Counted from the stretch's first letter, positions 2,946-63,677 are shown. The stretch: 64,000 bases of DNA from Nannocystis pusilla (GCF_051105105.1 NZ_CP185339.1), one strand, 5' to 3'. The notes: generated from the sequence alone by a model not told the origin. Translations and numbers: made by a program.

Positions 2946-2967
2946 CGTGCCCCCTACCCTGTCCCGC

Positions 2968-5768: not shown

Positions 5769-6047
5769 CGCTTCGCGTCGACCTCGACGCGTGAAGGAGC
5801 GCCGGCGTCCGCGAACCGAGCCGCGACCGCGAGGACGAGGGTTGTTCCGAGGGCTCCGACGTGGATCGCGGCGTCGACCCGGACATCGGCTCCTGTCGCT
5901 CCGGAGGTTGCGATCTCGCGGTGATTCCGCAGTCGACTCCGGGGCGTCGCGAGCTGGACGACCGCACGTCACGCGCGGGCGCGTCCGGCGGGTCTTCGCG
6001 CCCTCGGGTTCGACCGCGCGGCCGACGTGGAGTAAGACCAGCGCGTC

Positions 6048-7172: not shown

Positions 7173-7224
7173 CGCAGGCCCTCGCGCGCACCCGGCCTCA
7201 TCCTCGGCCCCCGCCCGCGCAGCG

Positions 7225-7307
7225 GCATGCCCGAAGGGACATGCCCGATTCGACATGTCCTTCTCGCCATGTCCATCACGACATGCCGCGAAGGACATGT
7301 CCAGTAG
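7225..7307. repeat. tandem array of six units of about 14 bp, each GACATGYCC plus a 4-7 nt spacer
   Basis: gcatgcccgaagg / gacatgcccgattc / gacatgtccttctcgc / catgtccatcac / gacatgccgcgaag / gacatgtccagtag. It lies in the intergenic region after the UDPGP gene, about 460 bp upstream of pgi. Confidence 0.8.
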
Positions 7308-7767
7308 TTTCCCCAGCCCTCTCGCGTCCCCACCGCCATTCGCCGCCCCGGAGCCGTCCGCCGCGCCGCCCGTCGCCGCGCACTGACGAGCGCCGGATGG
7401 GTCTCCAGGAGGTCCGAGCGATGGGCGGCCGGCCCCGGCCGTCCATCGCTCGGAGAGCCCTCCCCGCGCCGCGCCCTCCCGACAGCGGAGCCCACGACCG
7501 GCGCTCGGGCCACCCACGAGGCTAGCCGTGCAGCGGTCGGGGACGTGGGTCGGCGCCCATCCGCAGCGAGATGCGCCCGACGAAGGAGGGTGCATCCGCG
7601 AGGACTGGGCGCCGGCCCGCGTCCCCGACCGCCCGCGAGGCGGCCTCGGCAGTTCGCGAACCCCCGCGAAGCAAGCGCAACGAACCCCCGAAGCAAAGGC
7701 CGCCCGCCCGAGGCCTGGCGTCCCCAGGCTCCCCGCGAGCGCCGACGCTGCTATAAAGCGCGCCGAC

Positions 7768-9357: not shown

Positions 9358-9400
9358 CGCGCGAGACGTCGCGGCGAAGGGCGAGTATCCTGCCGCGCCC

Positions 9401-10816
9401 ATGGCCCCGGTCCCCGGACTCCGCGCGCTCGTCACCCTGGCCTGGCCGATCGTGCTCGCACGCTCGGCGCAGTCGGTGATCAGCTTCAGTGACGCGGCGA
9501 TGGTCGCCCCGCTCGGCGACGACGCGCTCGCGGCCGCGACCACGGGCGCCATGAACGCGCTGGGGATCCTCGTCCTGCCGATGGGCATCACGTTCATCGT
9601 CCAGAGCTACGCGGCCCAGCTCGCCGGTCGGGGCGACCTCGCCAGCGCGCGCCGCTACGCCTGGTACGGCCTGTGCCTGGCCGCCCTGGCGATGATCGCC
9701 ACCATCGCCGCCATCCCGGCGATAGGTCCGCTCCTGTCGCTCACCGGCCACGCGCCGGCGGTGCGCGAGACGATGGCCGAGTACATGGCGATCCGCATGC
9801 TCAGCACCGGCGTGGTCGTCGGCACCGAGGCGCTCGGCAACTGGTTCGCCGGCCTCGGCGACACCCAGGTGTCGATGCGCGCCAGCCTGGTCGCCATGGT
9901 CGTCAACATCGGCCTCAACTGGGTCCTGATCTACGGCAACCTCGGCGCCCCCGCGCTCGGCGTCCAGGGGGCCGCGTGGGCCAGCGTGCTGGCCAGCGTG
10001 GCCGGCTTCGCGGTGTGCTGCCACGCCTTCTGGCGCGCGCGCGACCGGCGGGCGATCGACCCGGCGGCGCTCGGGCACGTCGAGCACCCGGTACCTGACC
10101 TTCCGGACAGCTCGGACGGCCGCCTCAACCTGCGCGAGTTCTCGCGGATGATGCGGTTCGGCCTGCCGAACGGCCTCAACTGGTTCCTCGAGTTCGCGGC
10201 CTTCCTGATCTTCATCAACCTCGTGGTCGCCGAGCTCGGGACCGTCGCGGTCGCGGCGCTGATGGCCGTGGTGGCCGTCAACTCGGTCTCGTTCATGCCC
10301 GCCTTCGGCCTCGGCTCGGCCGGCGCGGTCCTGGTCGGCCAGGCGATCGGCGCCGGCCGCCACGACCACGTGCCGCGGATCGTGGTGCGCACCTTCTCGG
10401 TCGCCGCCGCCTGGCAGGGCCTGGTCGGGCTGCTCTACTTCACGATCCCGGTGCCGCTGATGACGATCTTCGCCCGCGACGAGGTCGAGACGTCCAGCGA
10501 GGTCGTGCACCTCGGCGCCCAGCTGCTGGCGATCAGCGCCGTGTGGCAGCTGCTCGACGCCTCCGTGATCACCTTCAGCGAGGCGCTGCGCGCCGCCGGC
10601 GACACCGCCTGGCCGCTGATCCTCCGGATCGCGCTCGCCTGGGTGATCTGGCTGCCCCTGGCCTGGCTGACCGTGTTCGTCTGGGACGGCGGCGCGACCG
10701 CGGCGATGTGGAGCATGTGCGTGTACATGGTGTTCCTCGCCCTGGCGATGGTGCTCCGCTTCCGCACCGGCGCCTGGCGCCGCATCGACATCACCGGCCG
10801 CGGCGCGACCGGCTGA
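9401..10816 (+). CDS. MATE family efflux transporter
   Basis: 471 aa with 12 predicted TM segments. It has a typical MATE N-terminus (LAWPIVLARSAQSVISFSDAAMVAPLG) and the internal two-fold repeat. Confidence 0.8.
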   Translation: MAPVPGLRALVTLAWPIVLARSAQSVISFSDAAMVAPLGDDALAAATTGAMNALGILVLPMGITFIVQSYAAQLAGRGDLASARRYAWYGLCLAALAMIATIAAIPAIGPLLSLTGHAPAVRETMAEYMAIRMLSTGVVVGTEALGNWFAGLGDTQVSMRASLVAMVVNIGLNWVLIYGNLGAPALGVQGAAWASVLASVAGFAVCCHAFWRARDRRAIDPAALGHVEHPVPDLPDSSDGRLNLREFSRMMRFGLPNGLNWFLEFAAFLIFINLVVAELGTVAVAALMAVVAVNSVSFMPAFGLGSAGAVLVGQAIGAGRHDHVPRIVVRTFSVAAAWQGLVGLLYFTIPVPLMTIFARDEVETSSEVVHLGAQLLAISAVWQLLDASVITFSEALRAAGDTAWPLILRIALAWVIWLPLAWLTVFVWDGGATAAMWSMCVYMVFLALAMVLRFRTGAWRRIDITGRGATG

Positions 10817-10823
10817 TCGAGCC

Positions 10824-10880
10824 AGCTCTCGAGGGCATGTTCTCGAGAGCATGTCCTCGAGGGCATGCTCTCCAGGACAT
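10824..10880. repeat. tandem array of four units of about 14 bp (GCATGYYC-TCGAGR-like), filling the convergent intergenic region
   Basis: gggcatgttctcgaga / gcatgtcctcgagg / gcatgctctccag / gacatgctcttcag. It lies between the MATE stop (10816) and the DUF1963 stop (10886). Confidence 0.8.
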
Positions 10881-10885
10881 GCTCT

Positions 10886-12304
10886 TCAGTGGCACTGCAG
10901 CGCCCCGCGCGCCTGCGACCAGTCGTGGACGGCCAGGGCGTCGGCGGGGATCCAGAAGTAGAAGAAGCCACCGTCCTGGTTGAGCAGCAGCTCGCCGTCC
11001 TCCTGGGCGTCGATCTGCAGCAGCAGCCGCCAGCGCAGCGCTCGCCGGCGGACCGCCAGCGCCTCGGGGCTGCCGTCGTCCCAGCCGTCCCAGCCCCCGG
11101 GGCGGGTGTCGATCTCAACGTCGAGGTACGGATCGCCCTGGATCGAGGCCGGGTGACCGAGCAGGCGGTGGTACGGCCGCTCGTAGTCGTCGAGCTCGCC
11201 GGACTCGGCGATGAAGCGCTCGAGCGGGTTGAACGGGACCAACTCGCCCCCCTCGCCCTGCTGACGCTGACGATGGACCTCGAGGATGCGCGCCTCGGGC
11301 AGCAGTGACTCGTAGAAGAAGTAGCTGTCGACGCACGGGTACAGCAGCTCGTCGGCGACGTCGATGTCGTGGGCGCTCAGCCGCTCGACCCCCGGAGGCA
11401 CGGGACGACGCGCGAGCACGTCGAGGTCGGTGAGGTGGAGCACCCGTACCGGATGGCCGCGCACGCCGTCGGGCGGGATCGGGGCGTAAAAGAAGCTCAG
11501 GAGGCCGTGCGCGGGCAGCTCGCGCGCGGCGGCGCGGCCCGCCAGCTCGGCGAGATCGAACTGGGCGACGAAGGTCAGCAAGACGCCGTCGACCTCGGGC
11601 CACGCGAGGTCGGGCGGCAAGTCGGGAGCACCGCCCAGGCGCGTCTGACCGGCGAGATGGACCTCCGCGTCGCCGCCGTCATCCTCGTCGACCTCGGCCT
11701 CGTCGCCTTCATCGCCGCCGTCATCCTCGTCAACCTCGGCGTCGTCCTCGTCGAGCTCTTCGCTGCGAGAGAGATGCAGGCGGATCGACGGGCGGGCCAT
11801 GGCTCGCACCTCGGCGACGTGCTCGGCGAGGCCGAGCGGCTCCAGGCGCTCGCGCCACTCGGCCTCGCGCGCGGCCTCGTCCATGGCCGCGAGGCGAACC
11901 GGATCGCGGAGCGCCGCGGCGAACTCGTCGGGCCGCTGCAGCGCTTCGTCGGCGAGCACTGCTCCGTAGACGAACAGGTCGCAGGGCATCATCGCGTCGG
12001 GTTCGCCGAAATGCGCGAGGATCGCGGGCATCGCCTGCAGGTGGCCCTCGACGTACGCCAACCAGCGCTCGGGGGCGTGCTTGCGATCGTCGCCGATGAA
12101 GACCTCCTGCTCACGGACATCGAGCGGGAGGACGCCGTCGACCGGATCGAAGGTCGTCAGCCGCAGGGCCATGAGGAAATAGCCCGCCTCGCTGCGCCAC
12201 ACCGGCGCGTCGTAGCCGGACGCGAACGCGAGCTCGACGGATCCTTCGCGCAGCGGGAGGTGACGGCGGAACAACTCGAGCAACCGGTCGGGATCGACGC
12301 TCAC
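10886..12304 (-). CDS. DUF1963 (YwqG-like) domain protein with an internal acidic D/E repeat
   Basis: The C-terminal ...LLLQIDAQEDGELLLNQDGGFFYFWI... is the DUF1963 signature. A low-complexity DEDDAEVDEDDGGDEGDEAEVDEDDGGDAEV linker sits mid-protein. Confidence 0.6.
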   Translation of the reverse strand: MSVDPDRLLELFRRHLPLREGSVELAFASGYDAPVWRSEAGYFLMALRLTTFDPVDGVLPLDVREQEVFIGDDRKHAPERWLAYVEGHLQAMPAILAHFGEPDAMMPCDLFVYGAVLADEALQRPDEFAAALRDPVRLAAMDEAAREAEWRERLEPLGLAEHVAEVRAMARPSIRLHLSRSEELDEDDAEVDEDDGGDEGDEAEVDEDDGGDAEVHLAGQTRLGGAPDLPPDLAWPEVDGVLLTFVAQFDLAELAGRAAARELPAHGLLSFFYAPIPPDGVRGHPVRVLHLTDLDVLARRPVPPGVERLSAHDIDVADELLYPCVDSYFFYESLLPEARILEVHRQRQQGEGGELVPFNPLERFIAESGELDDYERPYHRLLGHPASIQGDPYLDVEIDTRPGGWDGWDDGSPEALAVRRRALRWRLLLQIDAQEDGELLLNQDGGFFYFWIPADALAVHDWSQARGALQCH

Positions 12305-12389
12305 GGGCGCATCATACCGACCGGCAAGATTCCCGCGCTCGCCCGCCCGGCGCGCTGCGCCCGAACCGACGACGCGCGCGAGGATCTGC

Positions 12390-13415
12390 CTACAGCCCCA
12401 CGGGCCCGGCGAACGCGGCCAGCAGCTCGGCGGCCGCGTGATCGGGGCTGAGCCGCCCGGCGCGGACGGCCGCCTCGAGCGCGGGCCGGCGCGCGAGCAC
12501 CTCGGGATCGGCGGCGAAGCGGCGCATCAGCTCGGCCTCGATCGCCCGCCACAACCAGTACACGTGCTGGGCCTCGCGCTGGGCCTGCCAGGCGGGGCCG
12601 GCCTGGAGGGCCTCGCGGTGACGCTCGACGGTCTGCCACAGCGCCGCAAGGCCGGCGCCGGTGACGGAAGAAGTGGTGACGACCGGGACCGACCAGCCGG
12701 CGTGCTTGGGCCGGATGAGGCGCATCGCCAGGGCGTACTCGGCGCGGGCGCGCTCGGCGGCGGCGAGGTTGTCACCGTCGGCCTTGGTGATGGCGAGGAT
12801 GTCGGCGAGCTCGAGGATCCCGCGTTTGATGCCCTGCAGCTCGTCGCCGGCGCCGGCGAGCATGAGGACGAGGAAGCAGTCGACGAGCTGCGCGACCATC
12901 ACCTCCGACTGGCCGACGCCGACGGTCTCGACCAGGACGACGTCGAAGCCCGCGGCCTCGCACAGCAGCACGGTCTCGCGGGTATGACGAGCGACGCCGC
13001 CGAGCTCGCCGAGCGACGGCGACGGGCGGATGAAGGCGCGCGGCTCACGGGCCAGCTCCTGCATGCGGGTCTTGTCGCCGAGGATGCTGCCGCCGCTGCG
13101 CACCGAGCTCGGATCGACCGCGAGCACGGCGACGCGGCGACCGAGGTCTCGCACCAGATGGAGGCCGAGCGCCTCGATCAGGGTGCTCTTGCCGGCCCCC
13201 GGGCTGCCGGTGATGCCGACGCGCAGCGCCCCGCCCGCCCGCGAATCGCCCGTCTGCAGCGCCGCCACCAGCTCGCGCGCCAGCGCCTGATCGTCGGCAC
13301 GCTGGCTCTCGACCAGGGTGATCGCTCGCGCCAGCACCGCGCGATCGCCGGCCTGCACCCCCGCTGCGTACGCCTCGACGCTGAGCCGCCCTCGTGCCAT
13401 CGCCGGGCGCACCAT
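12390..13415 (-). CDS. meaB: methylmalonyl-CoA mutase-associated GTPase MeaB/ArgK
   Basis: P-loop GITGSPGAGKST plus ...VLVETVGVGQSE... and ...ILAITKADGDN..., the G-protein metallochaperone motifs. Confidence 0.8.
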   Translation of the reverse strand: MVRPAMARGRLSVEAYAAGVQAGDRAVLARAITLVESQRADDQALARELVAALQTGDSRAGGALRVGITGSPGAGKSTLIEALGLHLVRDLGRRVAVLAVDPSSVRSGGSILGDKTRMQELAREPRAFIRPSPSLGELGGVARHTRETVLLCEAAGFDVVLVETVGVGQSEVMVAQLVDCFLVLMLAGAGDELQGIKRGILELADILAITKADGDNLAAAERARAEYALAMRLIRPKHAGWSVPVVTTSSVTGAGLAALWQTVERHREALQAGPAWQAQREAQHVYWLWRAIEAELMRRFAADPEVLARRPALEAAVRAGRLSPDHAAAELLAAFAGPVGL

Positions 13416-15770: not shown

Positions 15771-16370
15771 GTGTTATGGTGCGCGCCGATGGCGTTTTGG
15801 TCCCGCAAGGAGCGACCCGCACCGTGTCCGAGCTGCGACGCGGCGCTGGACATCGGCCTCGTCAAAGACGGGCGACCGACGTGCCCGGCGTGCGGGCAAG
15901 CGCTGGTGCCGGTGCGCGTCGCCGGCTTCTGGCGGCGCCTCGCCGCCGCGGTGGTCGACGCCGCGATCCTGCTCGTCACCGCCGGCCCGCTGCACCTCGG
16001 CTTGCAGCGCGTGATCGGCGAGGCGAGCCCGGTGCGCGGCGCCTTCTCGTGGGCCGGTCTGCTCCAGCTCCTGACCGTCGACCCGCTCGAGATCCTGGTG
16101 TGGCTGGCGCCGCTCCTGGTGATGGTAGCGATCTACTTCGTGCTCTTCATCGCCCTGTCCGGAAGGACACCCGGGCAGAAGCTCACCGGGATCCGCGTGG
16201 TCCACCGCGCCGGCGGCAAGGTCGGTCCGGTGCGCGCGACGGTGCGTTTCGCGGGCACCGCCGTCGGCCTGGTGCCCGGCGGCCTCGGCTCGCTGTGGAT
16301 GGCTTTCGACCGCGAGAAGCGGGCCTTCCACGACTACCTGACAGGCACCTACGTCGTGAGGGAACAGTGA
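15771..16370 (+). CDS. RDD family membrane protein with an N-terminal CxxC..CxxC zinc ribbon
   Basis: CPSCDAAL...CPACGQ, then the RDD-type membrane core (WRRLAAAVVDAAILL...RTPGQKLTGIRVV). Confidence 0.6.
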   Translation: MLWCAPMAFWSRKERPAPCPSCDAALDIGLVKDGRPTCPACGQALVPVRVAGFWRRLAAAVVDAAILLVTAGPLHLGLQRVIGEASPVRGAFSWAGLLQLLTVDPLEILVWLAPLLVMVAIYFVLFIALSGRTPGQKLTGIRVVHRAGGKVGPVRATVRFAGTAVGLVPGGLGSLWMAFDREKRAFHDYLTGTYVVREQ

Positions 16371-19300
16371 GCCTCCTCCTGCGCCACCTCGAAGCCAACG
16401 GCCCGCTGTCGCGCGCCGATCTCGAGGCCGCGACCCGGCGGCAGCAGCTGGCCGGCGGCAGCCTCGACACCGCGATCCTCGAGCTCGGGCTGATGACCCC
16501 GCTGCAGCTCGACGCCCTGCTGCAGAGCGCCTGCGGCCTCCCCGGCGCGCCGGTGCGGCTGCTCGAGCGCGGGCCGACCCGTCCCTGGGAACATGTCCCG
16601 AGAGACCTGGTCGACATCGGCTGGGCCATGCCGCTCGCGCAGGAGGACGGCCGGCTGATCGTCGCCGTCCACCCCGACCTGCCCGACGCCAAGCTCGGCC
16701 AGCTCTACCGCATGGTCCGCGGCTTCTACCCGGTCGTCGCGCCCGAGTGCTGCCTGGCCAAGATCGCCGTCGAGCGCACCGGCTCGATCCTCGCCCCGCG
16801 CTACGCGCTGATCCTGCTCGACTACCTCGAGGCGCTGCGCACCGCCTCGATCACCATCAGCCTGGTGCCGGGCTCCGCCGAGGCGCGGGCGGGCGAGCCG
16901 CCTGTCCCTGCGGACAGGCAGCCGGCCGAGGCACCTGTCGCAACGGACAGGCAGCCGACGGCGGCCCGCGCCGAGGCAGCTGTCCCTGCGGACAGGCAGA
17001 CGGCCGACGCGCCCGACGCGGCGCCTGTCCCTGCGGACAGGCAGACGGCCGACGCGCCCGACGCGGCGCCTGTCCCCGCGGACAGGCAGCCTGCCGACGC
17101 CCGAGGCGCCGACACGACTGTCCCTGCGGACAGGTCGCACGCCGAGGCGCGACCGGAGCCGTCCGGCGCCGACACCCCGGTCGACGCTCGCCTCGCCGAC
17201 GCGCCCGCCGGCGATCGCCAGGCAGGCGACCCCGACGCGAGCCTGGAGCCCGGCGCCCCGGCCCGCCGCACCGACGCGCCCCCCGCCGCCCACGGGCTGG
17301 AGGTCGAGGCCGGAGGCCCTGCCCTCGGTTCGTCGCGACCCGGCGGGTCGGTGATCGGCCAGGTCGCCGCTGGTCGCGCGGATGCTCCTGTCCCTGCGGA
17401 CAGGTCCGCCGCCGACGCGAAGGTCGACGGGGCCGAGGCCTCGACTGCGGCCGGCGCCGTGCAGGCGGACGCCGCGGACGACGGGCGGACCGCCGCTGCC
17501 CCTGCCACCGGGGACGGGACGACCGCGGGCGCGCGGCCGGCGTCGCTGGCCGACGCGCTGCAGGCCGACGTACCTGTCCCATCGGACAGGCAGATGGCCG
17601 GGCCGCGCCCGGCGGCGATGTCCGGGCCCAACACCGCGGCGCGCGCGACGGGTTCGCCGTCCGGCGCCTCGCCGTTGTCGGAGGCCGGCTCGCCGAGGAC
17701 CGGGCCCGAGGACGCGGCCGCGACACCGCCTGCCCCCGGGGACAGGCCGAACGAGTCGCCCGCACCTGCCCTCAAGGACAGCCGCGACGAGGCCATCGAC
17801 GCGGACCGGGCCCGCCCGGCGAACGGGCCCGCGCTCGCCGCGGGTTCGTCCCCCGCGGCGCCGACTCCCGCCGGTTCGACGGCGTCCGACTCGGACGCCC
17901 ACGCGCCTCTCGCCGCCGACGAGCTCGCCGCGGACCGAGCGGCCGCCAGCAGCCCCGCGCCGTCGGCGTCGGCCCCGGCCGATGCAACTGTCCCTGAGGA
18001 CAGCAAAGGCGAAGCATCGCCGTCGCCGAGCGTCGCCGGCGCGTCCGCACCGGTCCCCGCGGGCAGCTCCGCTTCCAACGCCTCGACCAGGTCATTCCAG
18101 CTCGACACCCCGAGCCTCGCCGCTGCGGGGCGCCGGACCGAGCCCGCCCCCGCGCCTGCCGCCGCGGCGAGCCGCCAGACGGCTGCCTACGACTCCCGCG
18201 CGCCCGAGCCCGACTCCGCTGCCGCCGCCAACCGGCCCTCGACGCGGCCCTCGCCCGTCCCCGTCGCCCCGGACGCCCCGCTCATCGACCCGGGCGGCTT
18301 CGAGGACGAGAACGCCTCGCTGGCGGCGATGGCCATCGCCCCCGACACGCCGCTCATCATCCTGCCGCCGGCGACCACGCCGCGACCGGTGACCCCGCCC
18401 CTCGGGGTGCCGATCTACTCGGACACCTCGTCCGGCAATTGGGACAGGCGCACCCTCGTCGGCATCCCCGTCGGCGTGGCGCCCTCCCCCGCCCCCGCGG
18501 CCGACAAGCCCGCGGCCGCGCACGGCCCGAGCAACGGCGTCGCTCGCCCCACGACCGCGCCGGGCACACCTGTCCCTTCGGCCAGCCCCGTCGAGCCCGC
18601 CCCGAGCCCGCCTGTCCCTTCGACCAGCTCCCTGGAGGCCGCGCCGAGCGCCGCCGAAGCCGGGTCCGACGAGGATCTGGTCGAGTCGTCGACGCGCAAG
18701 CCGCCGGCCCTGCCGCAGCCGATGGTCATGACGCTGGCGCAGCGCCTCGACGCCGCCCGCGCCACGCTGGCCACCGCGCGCGAGCGCGACCGGATCACCG
18801 AGGCCCTGGTGCGAGCCGCCAGCCTGATCGCCCCGCGCGTGGCCCTGTTCGGGGTCAAGCGCGAGGGTCTGCGCGTCCTGGCCGCGCCCGGCAGCGCGCT
18901 GCGGATGTCCGAGGGCCTCGTCATCCCGCTGCCCGAGGGCGGCCTCCTCGATCGCGCGGTGTCGGGCCAGGGTCCGCTGCACCTCCTGATCGAGCCGAGC
19001 CTGTCGTTCGCCGTCGGCCAGCCGCTGGGGATCCCCTGCATCTTCGAGCCCGTGCTCGCTGGCGGACGCACCGTGCTGATGCTCTACCTCGACCGCTCCG
19101 GCGTCGCCTTCGATCCGCGCGAGCGGACCGTCCTGCGCGAGCTGTGCGACACGGCCCGGCAGAGCCTCGAGGCGCTGCTGCGGCTGCTCGGGTGGGTGGT
19201 GCCCGGCGGCACGCCCGGGGCCGGCCCGGCCGACCGTACACGCCCGTCGATCCGGCCCGCGACCCCGATCGTCACCGTCGACGAGGCCGACCCGCCGGGG

Positions 19301-21637
19301 ACGACACCACCTGTCTCTGCGGACAGCTCCGAGCTCGAGCCCGAGCCGCCGGCCGCCGAGGCCGAGGCCGAATCCGACCCGCCCCAGCCGCCGCCGACCG
19401 CGAGCGGCGCGGCGAGTGAACCCGGCTTCGGAGACAACAACAGCGTCGCCAGCCGGCTGCGCAGCCGCGGCAACCGCGGGCGCGCCGTCATCACCCTGAA
19501 GAACCCGATCCGGCGCGACGATCCGGCGACCGTGACGCCGCTGCCGGTCCGCGCCGAGAGCTCCGCGCTCGTGCGGGCTCAGACGCTCGCCGACGAGCCG
19601 CCGCCCCCGCCCGACGAGCCGGAGTACGAGGACCTCACCGACGACCCCGAGGAGCTCGACAGTCCGCCGCCCCGCCGCGACGGCCCCGGCCTCGGCCTCG
19701 CGCCGGTCCCCGTGCCCCTCGGCCCCGAGAACGGCCAGGACAGCCCGCTCGTGGCCCGCTTCGCCGCGATGTTCACCAAGCCGCCGGTGCCGGCGGTGAC
19801 GATCGACCTGTCCGATCGGCCCAATACCTTCGGACATGCGCGATCGGACAGCCCCGAGGCGCCGCCGGCGAGCCCGCAGCCCGAGATGCCGGGCTGGATC
19901 GCCACCGCCGAGCCGTCGGGCATCGAGGACCCGCTGCCGGTGGCGGCGGCGCTGCGGTCGGCCGCAACCGCCGCCGAAGCCCGCGTCGACCACGATCCGG
20001 CGGCGACGCTGCCGGGCGCGCCGCGGGTCGTGCTCGAGGAGACCACGCGGTCATCCACATCCACGCGCGACGAGTTCGACGAGTGGCCGCGCGCCGCCTC
20101 CGACACCCCGACCATCCTCGACCTCTCGCCTCCGCCGACCCACGAGCCGCTGCTGGTCGAGACCCGCGCCGCGCCCGACGCCAAGACTGTCCTCGACCTC
20201 CCGCGGGTCGACTCCCCGGTCCCGCCCGAGACCCTGATCCCCAACCTCGTCGCCCCGCCCGGCATGCCCGGCGCGGGTCGCCGTCGCCGCGCCAACGAAC
20301 CGGCCGAGGACGAGCCGGTGCTGGTGATCCCGAAGACGCTGCGGCGCTCGGGCGGCCTCACCGCCACGCCGCACCCGATGGCCCGTCGCAGCGACCCCGA
20401 CGAGCTCGAAGGCGGCCCGACGCTGTCGATGCCGACCACTCTGATCGGCCCGCGCAGCGGCCGGCGCCGCGGCAAGCACGACCCGCGCCCCGACTCCTCG
20501 TCCAGCGCCCTGACCATGCCCCGGCTGGTGCGCGAGGCCGAGGCCGAGGCCGAGGAGGTTGCGGCCCAGTCGACCGCGGGAGGGGCCGTTCCTTCGGAAC
20601 ATGCCCCCGAGGACATGCCCCGGAAGACCGGTCCCCAAGCGCAGGTCGACGCGAGCGCGCCGGCCGGCGCCGCCGAGGCGAGCGGGTCCGTCGCGGCCTC
20701 GCCGGCCGACGCTCGCCCGGCCGCGGTCGAGCAGTCGACCGAGGAGCCGGCCGCGACCGCCGAGGTCGCCTCCGGCGCGGCGCTCGACGACCGCGAGATC
20801 GACGCGGTGATCGAGGACTTCTTGCAGAACCCGGCCGAGTGGACCAGCGTGTCGCGGCTGCGCGCGCTCGACGAGCGCGGCCTGGCCCGCCTGGCGGCGC
20901 GCTTTCCCGGCCCCATCGACCTCGCCAACGCGACCAACTTCCCGCCGCCGAGCGCTCACGGGCCGCTGCTGCGCGCCTGCGTCGAACTCGGCCACGCGGT
21001 CAGCCCGCACGTGCTCGCCCTGTTCGCCAGCGCACGGCCGCAGATCCGCTTCTACGCCGCGTTCCTGTTCCAGGAGCTGCGCGACCCGAAGTGCCTGCGG
21101 CCGCTCGGTGAGCTGGCGTTCGACTCCGACCCCGACGTGCGGCTGATCGCCACCCGCGTGCTCGAGTCCTACAGCCGCGTGCCCGACTTCGCGACGGTGG
21201 CCGCGGAGATCCGCGGCGAGCTCGAGAGCCCGGACCGCGACCGCCAGCTCCTCGCCGTCGAGGCCGCCGGCACCCTGCGCGACACCCTCGCGGTGCCGCG
21301 TCTCATCGACCTGCTGGCGGTCCGCGACAAGCACGTCCGCGAGGCGGCGCTCGAGGCCCTGTGCTCGATCACCGCCAAGCACCACGGCTACCGCGCCCAG
21401 CGCTGGCGGGCGTGGTACGCCGAGCACGGCCAGGAGCCGCGCATCGAGTGGGTCATCGACGGCCTGCGCCACCGCGACGAGGCCGTGCGCCGCTGGGCCG
21501 CCGACGAGCTGGCGCGGATCACCGGTCAGCGGATCCCGTTCCCGGCCGAGGGCGACCGCCGCAGCCGCGATCTGGCCCTGCGCGCCTGGCAGGCCTGGTG
21601 GGACAGCAACCGCGAGGACTTCACCGCCGGTAGCTGA
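16367..21637 (+). CDS. large multidomain protein of about 1750 aa: N-terminal MshEN (T2SS-E N-terminal-like) domain, long Pro/Ala/Asp-rich disordered repeats, a central GAF-like region and C-terminal HEAT/PBS-lyase repeats
   Basis: GTG at 16367 overlaps the RDD stop. The N-terminus LLRHLEANGPLSRADLEAATRRQQLAGGSLDTAILELGLMTPLQLDALL resembles the GspE-N/MshEN fold. The C-terminus (...DSDPDVRLIATRVLE...DRDRQLLAVEAAGTLRD...DKHVREAALEAL...DEAVRRWAADELARI) is HEAT-repeat-like. The 2156-aa ORF in the track is a GC-driven 5' over-extension through prmA, rsmE and the RDD gene. Confidence 0.7.
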   Translation: MSLLLRHLEANGPLSRADLEAATRRQQLAGGSLDTAILELGLMTPLQLDALLQSACGLPGAPVRLLERGPTRPWEHVPRDLVDIGWAMPLAQEDGRLIVAVHPDLPDAKLGQLYRMVRGFYPVVAPECCLAKIAVERTGSILAPRYALILLDYLEALRTASITISLVPGSAEARAGEPPVPADRQPAEAPVATDRQPTAARAEAAVPADRQTADAPDAAPVPADRQTADAPDAAPVPADRQPADARGADTTVPADRSHAEARPEPSGADTPVDARLADAPAGDRQAGDPDASLEPGAPARRTDAPPAAHGLEVEAGGPALGSSRPGGSVIGQVAAGRADAPVPADRSAADAKVDGAEASTAAGAVQADAADDGRTAAAPATGDGTTAGARPASLADALQADVPVPSDRQMAGPRPAAMSGPNTAARATGSPSGASPLSEAGSPRTGPEDAAATPPAPGDRPNESPAPALKDSRDEAIDADRARPANGPALAAGSSPAAPTPAGSTASDSDAHAPLAADELAADRAAASSPAPSASAPADATVPEDSKGEASPSPSVAGASAPVPAGSSASNASTRSFQLDTPSLAAAGRRTEPAPAPAAAASRQTAAYDSRAPEPDSAAAANRPSTRPSPVPVAPDAPLIDPGGFEDENASLAAMAIAPDTPLIILPPATTPRPVTPPLGVPIYSDTSSGNWDRRTLVGIPVGVAPSPAPAADKPAAAHGPSNGVARPTTAPGTPVPSASPVEPAPSPPVPSTSSLEAAPSAAEAGSDEDLVESSTRKPPALPQPMVMTLAQRLDAARATLATARERDRITEALVRAASLIAPRVALFGVKREGLRVLAAPGSALRMSEGLVIPLPEGGLLDRAVSGQGPLHLLIEPSLSFAVGQPLGIPCIFEPVLAGGRTVLMLYLDRSGVAFDPRERTVLRELCDTARQSLEALLRLLGWVVPGGTPGAGPADRTRPSIRPATPIVTVDEADPPGTTPPVSADSSELEPEPPAAEAEAESDPPQPPPTASGAASEPGFGDNNSVASRLRSRGNRGRAVITLKNPIRRDDPATVTPLPVRAESSALVRAQTLADEPPPPPDEPEYEDLTDDPEELDSPPPRRDGPGLGLAPVPVPLGPENGQDSPLVARFAAMFTKPPVPAVTIDLSDRPNTFGHARSDSPEAPPASPQPEMPGWIATAEPSGIEDPLPVAAALRSAATAAEARVDHDPAATLPGAPRVVLEETTRSSTSTRDEFDEWPRAASDTPTILDLSPPPTHEPLLVETRAAPDAKTVLDLPRVDSPVPPETLIPNLVAPPGMPGAGRRRRANEPAEDEPVLVIPKTLRRSGGLTATPHPMARRSDPDELEGGPTLSMPTTLIGPRSGRRRGKHDPRPDSSSSALTMPRLVREAEAEAEEVAAQSTAGGAVPSEHAPEDMPRKTGPQAQVDASAPAGAAEASGSVAASPADARPAAVEQSTEEPAATAEVASGAALDDREIDAVIEDFLQNPAEWTSVSRLRALDERGLARLAARFPGPIDLANATNFPPPSAHGPLLRACVELGHAVSPHVLALFASARPQIRFYAAFLFQELRDPKCLRPLGELAFDSDPDVRLIATRVLESYSRVPDFATVAAEIRGELESPDRDRQLLAVEAAGTLRDTLAVPRLIDLLAVRDKHVREAALEALCSITAKHHGYRAQRWRAWYAEHGQEPRIEWVIDGLRHRDEAVRRWAADELARITGQRIPFPAEGDRRSRDLALRAWQAWWDSNREDFTAGS
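16980..17069 (+). repeat. exact 45-bp tandem duplication (x2, plus a degenerate third copy) inside the giant gene; each unit carries the inverted repeat CTGTCC-CTGC-GGACAG
   Basis: ctgtccctgcggacaggcagacggccgacgcgcccgacgcggcgc occurs twice back to back, encoding PVPADRQTADAPDAA. Further CTGTCC-N4-GGACAG copies lie near 16902, 16935, 17396, 17583, 17995, 19308 and elsewhere. Confidence 0.85.
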
Positions 21638-21649
21638 GCGGCTGTCACT

Positions 21650-21707
21650 TCGGGCATGTCCTGAAAGACATGCCTGAATCGGCATGCTCATTCGGGCATG
21701 TCCTCTG
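21650..21707. repeat. tandem array of four units of about 14 bp of the same family
   Basis: cgggcatgtcctgaaa / gacatgcctgaatcg / gcatgctcattcgg / gcatgtcctctgg. It begins immediately after the giant gene's stop (21637). Confidence 0.8.
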
Positions 21708-23983: not shown

Positions 23984-24015
23984 CCTGCGCTTCAGGACAT
24001 GCCCTGAAGCGCAGG
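23984..24015. terminator. perfect 13-bp-stem hairpin (cctgcgcttcagg-acatgc-cctgaagcgcagg) between convergent genes; candidate bidirectional intrinsic terminator lacking a U-tract
   Basis: It starts 8 nt after the stop of the 22981-23976 gene and ends 110 nt before the 3' end of the 24126 gene on the other strand. The loop and flanks contain the GGACATGCC motif. Confidence 0.45.
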
Positions 24016-49293: not shown

Positions 49294-49424
49294 GCGGAGG
49301 CGGCGAGAAGGATCGCCTGTCTTCGAGGCCATGCTTTCGTGACGCCGGGCGAACAGAGCGATCTGTCCCTGGGGACATCCGCGCCGCTTCGGGCTCTCGG
49401 CTGCCCTCAAGGACAGGTGACCGC

Positions 49425-58547: not shown

Positions 58548-58862
58548 GGCGAGAACGGTAGCCGAGGTCGTGCTGCAGGTGCGAGGGGCGATTTCGCGCG
58601 AACAGGCGAACGCCACGGAGGGCGGCGGGAACGAGGCACGGGCGCGCGTCGCCTGTCGCCAGGTTTTCGGCCCTGGTAGCGGCTGGGAGCGCCGGGCGGC
58701 GAAATCATCGACCGGTCGAGCTCGGCGCGGAGCCACGCTCGGCCGCGCAGCGGGCCGTTCGCGCCTGGGGGCGCCGCCGCCGGGTCGCGGACGGGTGAGA
58801 CGCGATCTGGCCGATGGGACAGACCCTCCGCGACGCCCTCGACCCTCGGCCGGCGCATGTCC

Positions 58863-59837
58863 TCACGGACATGTCGCCGGGGCCAGCTTGCAGTCGGAGA
58901 ACCAGGCGGCAACGTCGCGGCACTGCGGGTCGGCCGGGTCGGCGGCGGCGCAGGCGAGGAAGCCGGCGCGATCGCGCAGGGAGCACAGGCGCGGCAGCTC
59001 CCACTTGCGGTCGCGGCAGCTGGTGTCGCGCGGGTCGCAGGTGCTGCGCATCCAGGTCGCGGTGCCGTCGCCGCGGAGGAACACGCGGTCATCGACGTTG
59101 CGGGCGCCGACCAGGCTCTCGACGCGGAGGCTGGCGGCGGCCTCGGCGGCGAGGGCCTGGTAGAGGCAGGCGTCGCCGGCGACCTCGTCGTCGCACGGGC
59201 GCGGCGAGGCGCAGGCTTCGAGCAGCGCGAGGGCGATGTCACCCGGGCAGCGGCCGGCCGCGCACACGCAGGCGCACGCCTCGGGGTCCTGCGAGCCGAG
59301 GCCGCACTCGGTCCAGCCTGCAGGATGCTCGGGGCCGGGGAAGTCGCCGGCCTTGCGACCGACGCGGCGGACGTGGACGACGTTGCCGACCCGCTTGTAG
59401 AAGGTGGAGTCGTAGTCCTCGTCGCCGGTCGAGGCGCTGGCGGTGGCGCAGAAGCCCGCGGCCTCGAAGGCGCAGGTCGAGCGATTGGCGAGGCGCTCGG
59501 TGGCGAACCAGATGCAACCGGCGGCGTCGCAGTCGGCCTCGACGGCGTGCGACTCGCACGGCTCGACGGCCGCGGGCGGGAGCTCGGGCGCGAGGTCGGG
59601 CGGCGGCGTGACGAGGGCGCCGCTGCCGGTGACCGGCACGCTGGTGGCGGCGTCGCCGGTGCTCGTGCTGCCGGCGGTGCCGGTGGTGCTCCCCTCGCCG
59701 ACCGTCGCCACGGTGCCGCCCTCGCTGTCGGTGCCGCGCGAAGCCGCGTCGGACCGCCCGGGGCTACACCCAGTCGCTACCAGCCACGAGAAGAGATAGG
59801 CGACGCCTGCCGGGCGCGCGCCAAAACCAAACCGCAC
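58863..59837 (-). CDS. Cys-rich lipoprotein, hypothetical
   Basis: Signal peptide plus lipobox (MRFGFGARPAGVAYLFSWLVATGC), a T/G/S linker, then a domain with more than 20 Cys (...CDAAGCIW...CAFEAAGFCA...CACVCAAGRCPGD...). Confidence 0.5.
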   Translation of the reverse strand: MRFGFGARPAGVAYLFSWLVATGCSPGRSDAASRGTDSEGGTVATVGEGSTTGTAGSTSTGDAATSVPVTGSGALVTPPPDLAPELPPAAVEPCESHAVEADCDAAGCIWFATERLANRSTCAFEAAGFCATASASTGDEDYDSTFYKRVGNVVHVRRVGRKAGDFPGPEHPAGWTECGLGSQDPEACACVCAAGRCPGDIALALLEACASPRPCDDEVAGDACLYQALAAEAAASLRVESLVGARNVDDRVFLRGDGTATWMRSTCDPRDTSCRDRKWELPRLCSLRDRAGFLACAAADPADPQCRDVAAWFSDCKLAPATCP

Positions 59838-60802
59838 GGTCTCACCCTGCCAGAGCACGCGCAGGAGATCAAGGAACCGCAGCGCTGGCGGCCCCGGCGC
59901 GGCGCGACGATTGCGACCGAGGCTGCCCGACGATGTGGGCGAGCATCGCCGGTGTAAGAAGCTCGCTGCGACGAATGGGTGATGCGCGACACAGGCCCGG
60001 CGCGATGAAGGATGAAGAAGGAATGCCGGCGACGGGCTGGAGTCGACGGTTGCCCGCGGTTGCGAGGGAGAGGCCCACTCCGAGGCGTTTTCCGCGGGCC
60101 AGCGGGGCCCGGGCGCGGGCTGTGCGAACCGGTGTGCTCGGCTCGGCGGAGCGTCGGTCGCAAGGGTGACCCGCGCTCGCGGCTGCACGGTCGATGACGT
60201 TGGTCCACGCGCCGCCTGCCCTTCCGGCTCGGTCGTCGCGCCCGTTCCTGGCGCTCGCGCGGGCCGATCCTTGCGGTGTCATTCCGTGACCCGCGTCGGA
60301 GGCGAGGCGCGTCGGTGTCGAGGCGAACTGCAACGCGTTGTTCGATCGCGCGGCGGCGCAGGCGACGTCGTCCGGTCGGCGCTGGAGCCGGTGGGCGAAG
60401 CGCAGTGCGTCTGTCGACGTGACAGTGGCGGTGCCGCGGCGGGAGTACGACTGTCCGGTCCAGCGAGGCTGGAGGCGGAGCGCGACCGTCGATTTCGACG
60501 CGCGAGTCAGCGCCCGGCGCGACGGCCACCACGGCGCAGCGAACCTGCCGGGTCGGGATCGGCCGGCGTGCCCCGAGTGCAGGGGCGCGGTCCCTGCCCC
60601 GTCCACGGACCGCCGCGCGGCCGAACCAGGGCGCGGGGTCCCTGCCCCGTTCGCGTCGGATCGGCGCGGCCGAGCCTACCTCGCGCCGCGCGAACGCATC
60701 CCCCGGGCCGGCGGCCTCTTGCTCGCCCGGCTGCAGCGAGCTCGCTGCAGCGGCTGCAAGAACGTCGACGCATTGGGATAGCTGAACGCACACATCCCTC
60801 AC

Positions 60803-60873
60803 GACATGCTCTTTCGAGCATGCTCTTCGGAGCATGTCTTTTCGCCAATGGGCGAAAGAGCATGTCGCTTCGG
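60803..60873. repeat. tandem array of four units of about 14 bp of the same family, with an embedded 7-bp-stem hairpin
   Basis: gacatgctctttcga / gcatgctcttcgga / gcatgtcttttcgccaatgggcgaaaga / gcatgtcgcttcgg. The third unit carries the hairpin tttcgcc-aatg-ggcgaaa. Confidence 0.8.
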
Positions 60874-60930
60874 GCAGGGCGAGCGACCTCCCGAGCGGAC
60901 CCTACCCGCCGTGGCGGGGCCTGCGGCGCC

Positions 60931-62013
60931 TCAGCGCGGGCCGGGGATGATGCGGAGGTCGGTGAGGAAGCGGGCGAGCTCGCGGATGTAGTCGCGGCGG
61001 CCGAGCTGCAGGAAGTGGCCGCCGGTGAAGCGGAAGCGGCGCGGGCGCTGCCAGTGGTTCCACAGCGCGTCGGCGTGGGCCTCGGTGACGAGGGCGTCGC
61101 CGCGGGCGGTGACGACGAGCCGGCGCTCCCACGGCACCTTGGGCTCGTACGAGAGGGGGCTGTGCAGCGCCCACGAGCTGTGGAAGCGCTCGCGGGTCAT
61201 GCCGAGCGCCTCGGCCTGGCGGCGGAACGAGTCGCCCTCGCCGTGATCCCAGAAGAGGTGCGCGAACGAGGCGGGGGCCATGATCGGGACGACGAAGGAC
61301 AGCCGCGGATCGATCGAGGCGACCAGGGCCGAGGTGTAGCCGCCGAGGCTCGAGCCCATCATACCGAGCGGCGCCGGGCTGTGGCGCAGGATGGCGGTGA
61401 TGGCGGCGCGGACGTCCTGGACGGTCTGGATGAAGGCCTCGTTGGTGCGCACCAGATCGGTCGAGGGGAACAGCTCGCCCGAGAAGCGCGCGGTGGTCGG
61501 CTTGCGCAGGCTGTGGAACGGCTGGACGTAGAGGTAGACGTTGAGGCCGAGGTCCCGGTAGAGGGTGGAGATGCTGAACTCGATCTCGTGCAGGCGACGG
61601 TTGCCAACGCACCAGCCGTGCGCGAGCAAGATCGAGGCGGGCGCGGGCCGGTCGTGCTGCCAGGCGTGCAGGTGGACGGTGTCGACGCGATCGTAGGTGG
61701 CGTACTCGCGGGCGTAGCCGGGGTCGCGCGGGCGGTAGGGCGAGGCGAAGCTGAAGTGGGTGGCGCGACCGTCGACGAGCGGCCGCACGGCGAGCGGGAC
61801 GAGCGGCGGCGGGGCCGGCGGCGGCGCGAGCAGGCGATCGGGCTCGGCGAGCACGGCGGGGTCGGTGTACTGCGCGACGACCTCGAGGCGGCGCTCGAGC
61901 TCGGCCCGCGCGAGCCGGTCGAGCTCGTTGCGCTGCATGAGGACGCGGCGGAGCCCGTGCCGCATGACGCGGTCGAAGCGGGCGCAGGCGTGATCGGCGA
62001 GGGCGCTGAGCAT
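60931..62013 (-). CDS. alpha/beta hydrolase fold protein
   Basis: GSSLGG nucleophile elbow with ...HGWCVGN... upstream. The 360-aa ORF is intact. Confidence 0.65.
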   Translation of the reverse strand: MLSALADHACARFDRVMRHGLRRVLMQRNELDRLARAELERRLEVVAQYTDPAVLAEPDRLLAPPPAPPPLVPLAVRPLVDGRATHFSFASPYRPRDPGYAREYATYDRVDTVHLHAWQHDRPAPASILLAHGWCVGNRRLHEIEFSISTLYRDLGLNVYLYVQPFHSLRKPTTARFSGELFPSTDLVRTNEAFIQTVQDVRAAITAILRHSPAPLGMMGSSLGGYTSALVASIDPRLSFVVPIMAPASFAHLFWDHGEGDSFRRQAEALGMTRERFHSSWALHSPLSYEPKVPWERRLVVTARGDALVTEAHADALWNHWQRPRRFRFTGGHFLQLGRRDYIRELARFLTDLRIIPGPR

Positions 62014-62108: not shown

Positions 62109-63677
62109 ATGCAGGTCGCCGTGGCCGGAGCGAGCGGGTTCATCGGACAGGCGACCGTCCACGCGCTGCTGCAGGCCGGTCACGCGGTGGTCGGGCTGTC
62201 GCGGGGCCGTCGCGGCCGCATCGATCGGCCGGGGCTGGTGTGGCGAGAGGTGGACGTGAGCCGCGGGGGGCCCGAGCTGGTGGCCGCATTGGCGGGCTGC
62301 GAGGCGGTGGTCAACCTGGTGGGGATCAAGCGGCCCGAGCCGGGGCAGTCGTTCGACTCGGCCCACGTGGCGACGGTGGCGGCGCTGACGACCGCGATGC
62401 AGGCGGCGGCGATCCGGCGGCTCGTCCACGTCAGCGTGGCCGGGCCGCGAGCGGAGCCGCCGCGGCCGACGCAGTACATGACGACCAAGCGAGAGGCTGA
62501 ACGTTCGGTCATGTCCTCCGAGACAGACTGGACGATCCTCCGCCCCGGTCCGGTGGCCGGGCCGGGCGACGACTTCGTGCGCAACCTGGCGGCGACGCTG
62601 CGCCACGCGGGGGTGTTCCCGGCCCCGGACGGCGGCCACGCGCCGCTGCAGCCGGTGCTGGTCGAGGACGTGGCGCTGGCGATCGCGGCGGCGCTGGCGC
62701 GACCGGCGGCGATCGGGCGCTGCTACGACGTGGTCGGACCGGAGGTGCTGACGCTGCGCGAGGTGGTGACGCGGGTGGCCGACGCGCTGGGGCTGCCGGT
62801 GACGCTGGTGCCCTGCCCCGCCCCGCTGCTGGCGGTCGCGGTCGCGGGGCTCGAGAAGCTGCCCGACCCGCTGCTGACGCGGGCGCAGCTCGGGCTGCTC
62901 AGCCACGGGCTGATCGGCGATCCGGGGCCAGCGGCGGCGGAGCTCGGGCTGGTGACGCAGCCGCTGACCGCGGCCAAGATCGTGGCGCTGTCGGCCGGGG
63001 TCGAGCCGTGGCTGGGGCTGTCGCTGCGGCTGCGACGTGGCGACGAGGACATGTTCTTCAAGACATGTTCAAAGGGCGCGATCCACGTGGCCTGGCTGGT
63101 GCCGCTGGCGGTGGCGCTGATCTGGGCGCTCGGCTCGGTGACGCCGCACGTGTGGTGGCGGATGCTGGCGGCCAACCTGGTGCTGGTGCCGCTGTGCCTG
63201 CTGACGGTGCGTCTGCCGTGGCTGGAGCTGTGGCGCCCGAGCCTGCGCGGGCTGGTCCAGGGGGTGATGGCGACGGCGGTGCTGGTCGCGGCCGGCTGGC
63301 TCGGCAGCCAGGTGCTGTTCGCGGTGACGCCGGAGGCGCGGGCCGAGGTTGCGGCGGTGTACGGCTGGGTCCACCTGCTGCCGGCCGGGCTCGCGGTGGT
63401 GCTGCTGCCGCCGATCGCGGCGGCGGAAGAGGTGGTGTGGCGCGGGGCGGTGGCGTTCGCGGTGGCGTCGCGCGCGGGGCCGTGGTGGGGCGCAGCGACG
63501 GCGGCCGCCGCCTTCGCGGTGGCGCACGTGAGCCTCGGGGTGCCCGCATTGGTGGTGGCGGCCGCCGGCGCGGGGTTCTTCTGGGCCTGGCTCGGCCTCA
63601 AGACCCGCAGCCTGTTCGTGGTGCTGGTGTGCCACGTGCTGTGGGACGCGTGCGTGGCGGTGCTGCGGCTGTACTGA
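62109..63677 (+). CDS. fusion protein: NAD(P)-binding NmrA/epimerase-like domain plus a C-terminal CPBP (CAAX protease / Abi) intramembrane metalloprotease domain; could be two genes read through
   Basis: VAGASGFIGQATVHALL (Rossmann fold) and, downstream, EEVVWRG...FAVAHV.. (CPBP motifs). The linker ...RGDEDMFFKTCSKG... (63040-63075) is encoded by two copies of the GGACATG motif and contains an in-frame ATG at 63051. Confidence 0.55.
   Translation: MQVAVAGASGFIGQATVHALLQAGHAVVGLSRGRRGRIDRPGLVWREVDVSRGGPELVAALAGCEAVVNLVGIKRPEPGQSFDSAHVATVAALTTAMQAAAIRRLVHVSVAGPRAEPPRPTQYMTTKREAERSVMSSETDWTILRPGPVAGPGDDFVRNLAATLRHAGVFPAPDGGHAPLQPVLVEDVALAIAAALARPAAIGRCYDVVGPEVLTLREVVTRVADALGLPVTLVPCPAPLLAVAVAGLEKLPDPLLTRAQLGLLSHGLIGDPGPAAAELGLVTQPLTAAKIVALSAGVEPWLGLSLRLRRGDEDMFFKTCSKGAIHVAWLVPLAVALIWALGSVTPHVWWRMLAANLVLVPLCLLTVRLPWLELWRPSLRGLVQGVMATAVLVAAGWLGSQVLFAVTPEARAEVAAVYGWVHLLPAGLAVVLLPPIAAAEEVVWRGAVAFAVASRAGPWWGAATAAAAFAVAHVSLGVPALVVAAAGAGFFWAWLGLKTRSLFVVLVCHVLWDACVAVLRLY

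Follow-up and report, generated by a model that had tools for sequence, protein, structure and literature searches.

What is a short run of palindromic repeats doing between a hydrolase gene and the gene of a Cys-rich putative lipoprotein in Nannocystis pusilla? The run is at positions 60803-60873 of a 64,000-nucleotide stretch of DNA (GCF_051105105.1, NZ_CP185339.1), which was analysed as a whole, is referred to here as the window and has a G+C content of 71.6%. A sequence-only reading of the window had described the run as the fourth of four arrays with the same architecture, with units of 13-15 bp and an embedded hairpin in the third unit. It had also argued that four such loci represent a class of functional elements and not chance. 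The array is real, arrays of the same architecture are present at all four window loci, and the flanking genes are the Cys-rich lipoprotein open reading frame (ORF) and the hydrolase gene, as had been described (Table 1).

The array under study has five slots in a strict 14-bp register with a half-unit on either side, and the full element spans approximately 60788-60881. The sequence from 60800 to 60880 reads cac GACATGCTC tttc GAGCATGCTC ttcg GAGCATGTC ttttcGCCAATGGGCgaaa GAGCATGTC gcttcGGGCAggg. The repetition seen in the earlier reading is genuine, but its period is exactly 14 bp and not 13-15 bp. Likewise, the embedded stem-loop, tttcgcc-aatg-ggcgaaa, does exist at 60841-60858, but it is not an expansion of the third unit; it is the degenerate, in-phase fourth unit together with the complementary spacers TTTC and GAAA. 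The 28-bp gap in the array is exactly 2 x 14, and the AATG slot at 60847 is in register.

Table 1. Positions of the array units, the neighbouring genes and the sister arrays in the window.
Feature	Position	Strand	Remarks
GCACACATCC, degenerate flanking unit	60788..60797		7/10 matches to GGRCATGYCC; right half ..TCC kept; read from the sequence
Unit 1, CGACATGCTC	60802..60811		CATG at 60805
Unit 2, GAGCATGCTC	60816..60825		perfect 10-bp palindrome; CATG at 60819
Unit 3, GAGCATGTCT	60830..60839		CATG at 60833
Unit 4 (degenerate), GCCAATGGGC	60844..60853		AATG at 60847; C->A in core
Unit 5, GAGCATGTCG	60858..60867		CATG at 60861
GGGCA, flanking half-unit	60872..60876		left half kept; with TGTCG at 60863 forms TGTCG-CTTC-GGGCA
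ABHD18-type alpha/beta hydrolase gene	60931..62013	-	96% identical to N. pusilla protein
Cys-rich putative lipoprotein ORF	58863..59837 (approximate)	-	downstream of array, same strand; lipobox-like LVATGC
Single hairpin unit GCATGTCC-TCAC-GGACATGTC	58853..58877		exactly at the stop of the Cys-rich lipoprotein ORF; upstream of PhaR-like (PHB_acc_N) gene
Sister array A1	7223..7302		6 units; about 50 nt after UDP-glucose pyrophosphorylase stop, upstream of pgi
Sister array A2	10833..10887		4 units; fills 69-bp gap between convergent MatE and DUF1963 genes
Sister array A3	21643..21706		half-unit plus 4 units; convergent gap; 6 nt after stop of 1756-aa HEAT-repeat gene

The 14-bp spacing stands out in the window as a whole. 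Two CATG tetranucleotides are 14 nt apart 20 times, and any other spacing up to 40 occurs at most five times. The three-unit pattern RCATGY-N8-RCATGY-N8-RCATGY has six matches versus none in 100 dinucleotide shuffles, and the two-unit pattern has 14 matches versus 0.05 expected from the shuffles. With no shuffle matches against the six observed, the probability that the array is a chance cluster or an ordinary minisatellite is close to nil. The minisatellite reading is also ruled out by the units themselves, which differ at every non-core position of the array.

How widespread are these arrays? Representative genomes of 185,579 species were scanned for four phased RCATGY units, and at least 120 loci were found. 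Among the matches listed, 89 are from seven Nannocystis genomes (N. sp. RBIL2, N. bainbridge, N. radixulma, N. pusilla, N. punicea, N. exedens and one metagenome-assembled genome). The other 31 listed matches are single, occur in unrelated taxa and are all 7- or 14-bp minisatellites with identical units; the 16 matches in viral contigs are also all plain minisatellites with identical units. Among the matches listed, the phased-array family is apparently restricted to Nannocystis. Within the genus, the arrays are not confined to the four loci on which the element class was first proposed, as 145 arrays are present in 776 kb of Nannocystis DNA. Leaving out the arrays that define the loci, there is on average an array every 13.7 kb in the loci and every 16 kb in the window; by extrapolation, a genome of 11-13 Mb would contain about 700-950 arrays.

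The syntenic DNA of more distant organisms has few units. None is present in 21 kb of Paraliomyxa, two single units are present in a Nannocystaceae metagenome-assembled genome, and eight single units but no arrays are present in 21 kb of a relative known from a metagenome contig (L146), in which the hydrolase orthologue is 64% identical. Because these outgroups carry single units without arrays, the single units would be older and more widespread than the arrays. The L146 modules, CCTGTCC-N4-GGACAG, span 2695-13245; several of them are 30-190 nt inside the annotated 5' ends of genes, and three are in a row at 9725-9803. Single modules may be placed differently in the L146 lineage. The literature on Nannocystis or myxobacterial intergenic, REP or palindromic repeats yielded no description of this family.

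A logo was pooled from the 145 arrays (633 slots) of the window and the 89 Nannocystis loci. It reads G(.72) G(.68) R C A T G Y C(.67) C(.73); the 4-nt spacer behind it has an excess of A+T and is otherwise free. In the end slots of the whole family, only TG.CC is kept before the first unit and only GG.CA is kept after the last unit. The sequence TGYCC-N4-GGRCA occurs 258 times in the 776 kb, compared with 0-9 times for each of the other spacings from 0 to 12, and GGRCATGYCC occurs 188 times. The halves kept in the end slots, the exclusive N4 spacing and the excess of 258 over 188 therefore show that the basic module is a spacer-centred 14-bp palindrome, TGYCC-N4-GGRCA. When single-stranded, the module would fold into a small stem-loop. 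If it is copied head to tail without a linker, the invariant CA|TG junction and the 14-bp period arise automatically. The arrays hold three to seven copies of the module in this arrangement.

Another 158 modules are single, typically C[C/A]TGTCC-N4-GGACA[G/T]G. When the arrays are masked, GGACA/TGTCC is still the most over-represented non-coding 5-mer, and ACATGT ranks first among the 6-mers. Coding DNA shows no enrichment of the half-site by itself (GGACA 1015 observed versus 1115 expected); only the N4 palindrome is enriched there, and 75 of the 158 isolated modules are inside called genes, about 20 times the chance expectation. The spacers of neighbouring units are hardly more alike than random ones (1.21 of 4 positions identical versus 1.08).

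Two patterns within the units can be added. The HEAT-repeat gene that precedes A3 (16367-21637, plus strand, 1756 aa, with C-terminal HEAT repeats) contains approximately 18 in-frame modules at 16890-20620, for example CCTGTCC-CTGC-GGACAGG. They translate as V-P-x-D in PVPADRQ-type peptide repeats of an Ala/Pro/Asp-rich linker, and some of them are in 45-bp tandem repeats. In addition, the two variable bases of the CATG-centred unit are anti-correlated when the arrays are pooled (AT 140, AC 167, GT 169, GC 79; odds ratio 0.39, p = 1.4e-7). Thus, the perfect palindromes ACATGT and GCATGC are under-used, as can be seen at 60802-60839. Avoidance of restriction sites or of cruciforms could account for this under-use, as could a mixed half-site preference.

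The stop codon of the hydrolase gene is 49 nt upstream of the array under study in the sense direction, and the array is in the hydrolase 3' trailer. The start codon of the Cys-rich ORF is uncertain; its open frame reaches 60188, and the ORF is without a Pfam match. A scan of 60000-61200 for sigma-70 promoters and terminators produced no match. No Rfam family matched any part of the window at the gathering score, and with relaxed thresholds the surroundings of the array yielded only a chance miRNA match (E = 0.36). The MatE protein next to A2 is 87% identical to that of N. bainbridge. All of the convergent gaps of at least 40 bp in the window carry at least one unit. The remaining two convergent gaps are at 23986-24013 and 49364-49415; one has a degenerate pair, TGCGCTTCAGGACA followed by TGCCCTGAAGCGCA, 10 nt after a stop codon and the other has two single modules. 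The array-adjacent genes are functionally unrelated, and so, the element would mark gene ends generally and not a pathway.

Two short elements near the array are separate observations. Between the array and the lipoprotein gene, at 60570-60660, there are two direct copies of ggggcagggacc(c/g)cgcccc (minus-strand reading). The motif is kept at the corresponding place in another N. pusilla genome (L121), and it may have a role in the regulation of the lipoprotein gene. A two-unit element, GGACATGTTC-TTCA-AGACATGTTC, is present at 63047-63072, inside a fused epimerase/Rce1-like ORF at the domain junction. It codes for E-D-M-F-F-K-T-C and is conserved in N. pusilla (L121, at about 2728) and in one further locus (L122, at about 2850); it could be an internal start mark or plain coding sequence.

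The placement of the arrays relative to genes displays a clear pattern. Genes were called with a caller based on the G+C content of third codon positions (GC3), by which 81% of the DNA is coding. Of the 145 arrays in the 776 kb, which are almost exclusively at the 3' ends of genes, 73 are in convergent gaps, 43 in tandem gaps, two in divergent gaps and eight inside called genes. The background gaps of at least 40 bp are 94 convergent, 177 tandem and 71 divergent, which differs from the arrays with p = 3e-12 (chi-square). Both the depletion in divergent gaps (2/118; Fisher p = 4e-8) and the enrichment in convergent gaps (Fisher p = 5e-11) contribute. The median distance in tandem gaps is 18 nt from the upstream stop codon to the array and 223 nt from the array to the next gene. 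Many of the arrays in convergent gaps are wedged between both stop codons, e.g., at distances of (4,-1), (6,6) or (8,3). A role as a sigma-54 enhancer or as a promoter-operator was rejected because the arrays avoid divergent gaps and are commonest where no downstream promoter exists.

Long hairpins are predicted for RNA from the arrays, with neighbouring 10-nt units paired to each other and the 4 nt between them as the loop. For the four window arrays, the predicted energies lie between -32.6 and -49.1 kcal/mol and the z-scores between -4.0 and -6.3. In the array under study, the sense (minus) strand gives -44.9 kcal/mol (z = -5.7) and the opposite strand gives -42.4 kcal/mol; A2 is predicted to form a single hairpin of about 25 bp (-49.1 kcal/mol, z = -6.3). 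Even where there are no arrays, 3' regions in Nannocystis form more stable folds than 5' regions do (-40.9 versus -35.0 kcal/mol, p = 1e-7), and the array regions match that 3' stability (-42.4 kcal/mol) though they are less G+C-rich. Spacers that flank a two-unit hairpin are complementary (at least three of four pairs) in 14.5% of the cases versus 7.7% by chance.

The two strands are not equivalent in these predictions. In the 43 arrays in tandem context, folding favors the sense over the antisense strand by 3.8 kcal/mol (28 versus 15 arrays, Wilcoxon p = 0.004), and GNRA and UNCG loops or spacers number 20 on the sense strand versus eight antisense equivalents. On the sense strand, T at +4 is also commoner than A at -1 (p = 0.007), an imbalance that leads to G:U rather than A:C mismatches. 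These three signals agree in direction, but they are modest in size. Transcription-coupled C->T mutation could produce the sense-strand bias instead of selection on RNA.

Two expectations for an ordinary RNA hairpin were not borne out. The T fraction downstream of the 43 sense-oriented arrays is 0.05-0.23, and no U-tract was found 3' of the arrays; therefore, they are not canonical intrinsic terminators. Covariation, as a proof of RNA structure, was sought in single units and in arrays and is absent from both. The internal pairs of single units at the R/Y position (T:A 121, C:A 22, T:G 12, C:G 2) have no compensatory changes, and the counts are exactly what independent decay from the TGTCC/GGACA consensus predicts. 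In the arrays, pairs across the spacer are no better than independent (odds ratio 1.23, p = 0.32; odds ratio 1.31, not significant).

How did the arrays arise? The non-core positions of arrays compared in phase are 0.512 identical within genomes and 0.510 identical between genomes. Only two array pairs reach an identity of at least 0.8, and both are adjacent local duplicates: L092 6506/6576 and L111 1896/1955, which are 80-83% identical at non-core positions and 60-70 bp apart. They are the only sign of recent whole-array duplication, and it is local rather than dispersed. A copy-and-paste origin from a master sequence (MITE/REPIN) was rejected, since the identities within and between genomes are equal. 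In six interspecies pairs of orthologous arrays, the number of CATG cores and the register are kept and the spacers are 29-39% identical, which is near random for their composition; this comparison is biased, since the two arrays of every pair had both been picked out by the search pattern.

As an unbiased check, orthologous sites were reached via the neighbouring proteins. The A1 site has six slots in the window, six slots with different spacers in N. bainbridge and none in N. radixulma. At the A2 site, the four units of the window correspond to seven in N. bainbridge and to none in N. radixulma, where the gap contains a plain hairpin, ttcctcgc...gcgaggaa. Similarly, where N. radixulma has a five-unit array behind a stop codon, N. 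punicea (L030) has a plain G+C-rich hairpin, gatccgcc-ccgca-ggcggatc.

The hydrolase 3' site provides the longest series. The other N. pusilla genome (L121) has the same five slots in register and the same degenerate slot (ATTG on the sense strand). Distant relatives (L124 and L145) have one hairpin unit each: it is CATGCCC-TTTA-GGGCAGG in a relative with 81% protein identity and CCTGTCC-CGAA-GGACATA, 7 nt after the stop codon, in a Nannocystaceae metagenome-assembled genome; two other relatives have no unit. In the L121 assembly (GCA_049060185.1, 2100-4930), the epimerase/Rce1 gene is broken into three pieces (241, 99 and 49 aa), and the called hydrolase has 308 aa and a C-terminus that differs. 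These split and altered genes suggest frameshift errors in the assembly, and so, the position of its array-adjacent stop codon is unreliable. The picture that these sites suggest is one in which a single gene-end hairpin can expand into a phased array, with the half-sites held by selection, and arrays may be interchangeable with ordinary hairpins over longer times.

The proposal that the arrays are an element class and not chance is thus upheld by the shuffles, by the abundance of the arrays, by their placement at 3' ends and by cores that stay in register across species. Position and conservation would also support calling the class functional.

We favor the explanation, with about as much doubt as confidence, that the arrays are bidirectional transcript-end hairpin elements that act in termination, in 3' protection or in both. 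The array would be transcribed as the 3' trailer of the preceding gene, and the trailer RNA would fold into long, very stable hairpins that define the 3' ends of transcripts. Presumably these hairpins halt or delay RNA polymerase with no need of a U-tract, keep 3'->5' exonucleases out, or do both. The strict register would fit growth by tandem duplication of a 14-bp hairpin unit. Since the units are self-complementary, they fold on either strand, which accounts for the excess of arrays in convergent gaps. In its favor are the placement at 3' ends, the stability of the predicted folds, the sense-strand signals, the complementary spacers, the plain hairpins that take the place of arrays at orthologous sites, the hydrolase series and the cores that keep their register between species. 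The sequences themselves show the anatomy of the arrays, their abundance, their genus restriction (among the matches listed), their placement, their predicted stability and strand bias and their turnover between species, whereas transcription of the array, its role in termination or stabilisation and the recognising factor are inferred. Against a terminator role is the fact that about half of the isolated units are in coding DNA, which termination leaves unexplained. Furthermore, the fixed half-site, the exclusive N4 spacing and the lack of covariation indicate that folding alone is insufficient and point to a sequence-specific partner. Probably a sequence-specific factor, either a protein or a spreading mechanism, also recognises the module.

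Other explanations account for some of these properties. One of them, which we consider possible but rather unlikely, is that the arrays act as double-stranded DNA: each palindrome, with its 5-4-5 geometry (typical of FNR-type operators), would bind a dimeric protein, and a phased filament would form at gene ends. The filament could serve as a transcription roadblock or insulator, as a nucleoid or topology site (a role that has been proposed for BIME with gyrase and IHF) or as a boundary where two genes converge. In favor of such binding, the half-sites are conserved in sequence and not in pairing, with arms that deviate independently (C:G in 2/157 single units). The exclusive N4 spacing (258 versus 0-9 at others), the strict 14-bp register with free spacers that is kept across species and the rank of GGACA/TGTCC as the top non-coding 5-mer outside the arrays also favor a DNA site, and the over-representation of the motif in genes as well resembles that of nucleoid-protein sites. 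However, the coupling to the stop codon (median 18 nt) and the sense-strand asymmetries are unexpected for a strand-blind DNA site, and unrelated plain hairpins replace the arrays at orthologous sites. In addition, no candidate protein was identified, and abutting 14-bp sites would crowd typical helix-turn-helix dimers.

It is quite unlikely, in our judgement, that the units are selfish or neutral REP-like sequences, spread by a dedicated enzyme, such as a RAYT-type tyrosine transposase that acts on single-stranded hairpins, or by hairpin-driven slippage, tolerated only at the 3' ends of genes because they are harmless there, and of no use to the host. There is no master copy (0.512 versus 0.510 non-core identity) and no conserved GTAG-type head, and the unit of 14-18 nt is shorter than any REP. 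The spacers are essentially unshared (1.21 versus 1.08 of 4) and the cores are intact across species, which implies purifying selection and not decay. These points have to be set against properties that the arrays do share with REPs, namely an extragenic location, a bias to convergent gaps, genus specificity (among the matches listed) and great abundance. Arrays have also been gained, lost and resized between close species, the adjacent near-identical arrays in L092 and L111 represent local duplication, and a coding linker of low complexity contains in-frame copies. It is very improbable that the palindrome is a genus-specific tag for DNA recognition, of the uptake type, which would accumulate throughout the genome and form terminator hairpins incidentally when paired. 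Phased arrays of three to seven units are foreign to uptake sequences, and the half-site alone is not enriched in coding DNA (1015 versus 1115 expected). Sequence-specific DNA uptake is not known to occur in myxobacteria. A tag would nevertheless fit the genus specificity (among the matches listed), the thousands of copies expected by extrapolation, their presence in both coding and intergenic DNA and their pairing just after genes, and there is a precedent in the DUS and USS (PMC1852404). A CsrA-type GGA decoy, a CRISPR and the repeats of a type III antitoxin were dropped on geometry, as the GGA is in the stem and the period is only 14 nt.

The transcript-end explanation also has parallels in known systems, although none of them matches the Nannocystis element in every respect. 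The REP325 element of E. coli is a partial terminator and an mRNA stabiliser (bioRxiv 10.64898/2026.03.23.713779). Like REP and BIME sequences, the Nannocystis units are short extragenic palindromes, hundreds per genome, that are located after stop codons and in convergent gaps, are often clustered, are lineage-specific and, as predicted here, would be transcribed into 3' UTR hairpins. They differ from REP and BIME in their length (14 bp, or 18 with flanks, versus 20-40 nt for a REP), in that they abut in a 14-bp register whereas REPs alternate in orientation with defined linkers, and in having stems that are conserved in sequence without covariation. Unlike REPs and REPINs, the arrays have no GTAG-type head, since nothing is conserved outside TGYCC/GGRCA, and no population of near-identical copies. 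Unlike in a minisatellite or VNTR, the units are not near-identical over their whole length.

Pairs of uptake sequences form terminator hairpins in Neisseria and the Pasteurellaceae (PMC1852404). As with these DUS and USS, a genus-specific short sequence builds hairpin stems after many Nannocystis genes and has copies in coding DNA as well (PMC1852404). The DUS and USS, however, are asymmetric 9-12-mers that are enriched alone and whose hairpins usually have T-rich tails, whereas in the Nannocystis element the enrichment is confined to the palindromic pair, which is multiplied into phased arrays without a T-tail.

The arrays possess one feature of canonical intrinsic terminators, a stable hairpin near the stop codon, and lack the other, a U-rich tract. 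Intrinsic terminators without a U-tract, called I-shaped, have reportedly been proposed for high-G+C bacteria (Unniraman et al. 2001; Mitra et al. 2009). The arrays resemble them in having a stable hairpin just after the stop codon and no U-tract, in a genome of 72% G+C, and in being bidirectional between convergent genes. The hairpins of ordinary terminators, however, have idiosyncratic sequences, whereas the Nannocystis arrays share one half-site and a modular 14-bp repeat and are relatively A+T-rich.

Tandem operator arrays are known from the met-boxes of MetJ and from the heptad arrays of omega/ParR-type ribbon-helix-helix proteins. Like the Nannocystis arrays, they consist of abutting short palindromic boxes (two to ten copies) in a fixed register, and each box there binds one dimer. 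They are located at promoters or plasmid centromeres, at one or a few loci, whereas the Nannocystis arrays are at hundreds of gene 3' ends and not in promoter or operator locations (2/118 in divergent gaps).

One further reading, which is unlikely, is a putative factor-dependent, sequence-specific marking of gene ends in Nannocystis. TGYCC-N4-GGRCA, either in the DNA or in the folded stem, would be the target of a dimeric protein that binds cooperatively to phased arrays and brings about bidirectional termination or insulation. Protein-directed terminators are known in the form of mTERF and Reb1. If the dimeric-protein system were true, it would be a bacterial counterpart of the mTERF or Reb1 terminators, unlike hairpin/U-tract or Rho termination, and the copies in coding DNA would be a second layer of binding sites.

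In conclusion, the Nannocystis family is abundant and cleanly defined and apparently undescribed in the literature searched, and its likely role is a familiar one. As judged from the sequences compared here, its distinctive features would be the 14-bp module, the strict phasing, conserved half-sites that do not covary and growth in situ rather than by transposition. We know of no terminator code or REP-like family described for the myxobacteria, which have genomes of 11-13 Mb and 72% G+C. The orthologous series illustrate how a single hairpin becomes a phased array by duplication of its unit, and a half-site that is conserved without covariation of the pairing hints at an undiscovered recognition factor. 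The arrays may also supply compact bidirectional terminator or insulator parts for engineering producers of natural products. If the element does mark the extrapolated 700-950 gene ends per genome, it would be an annotation landmark for the ends of Nannocystis transcripts.
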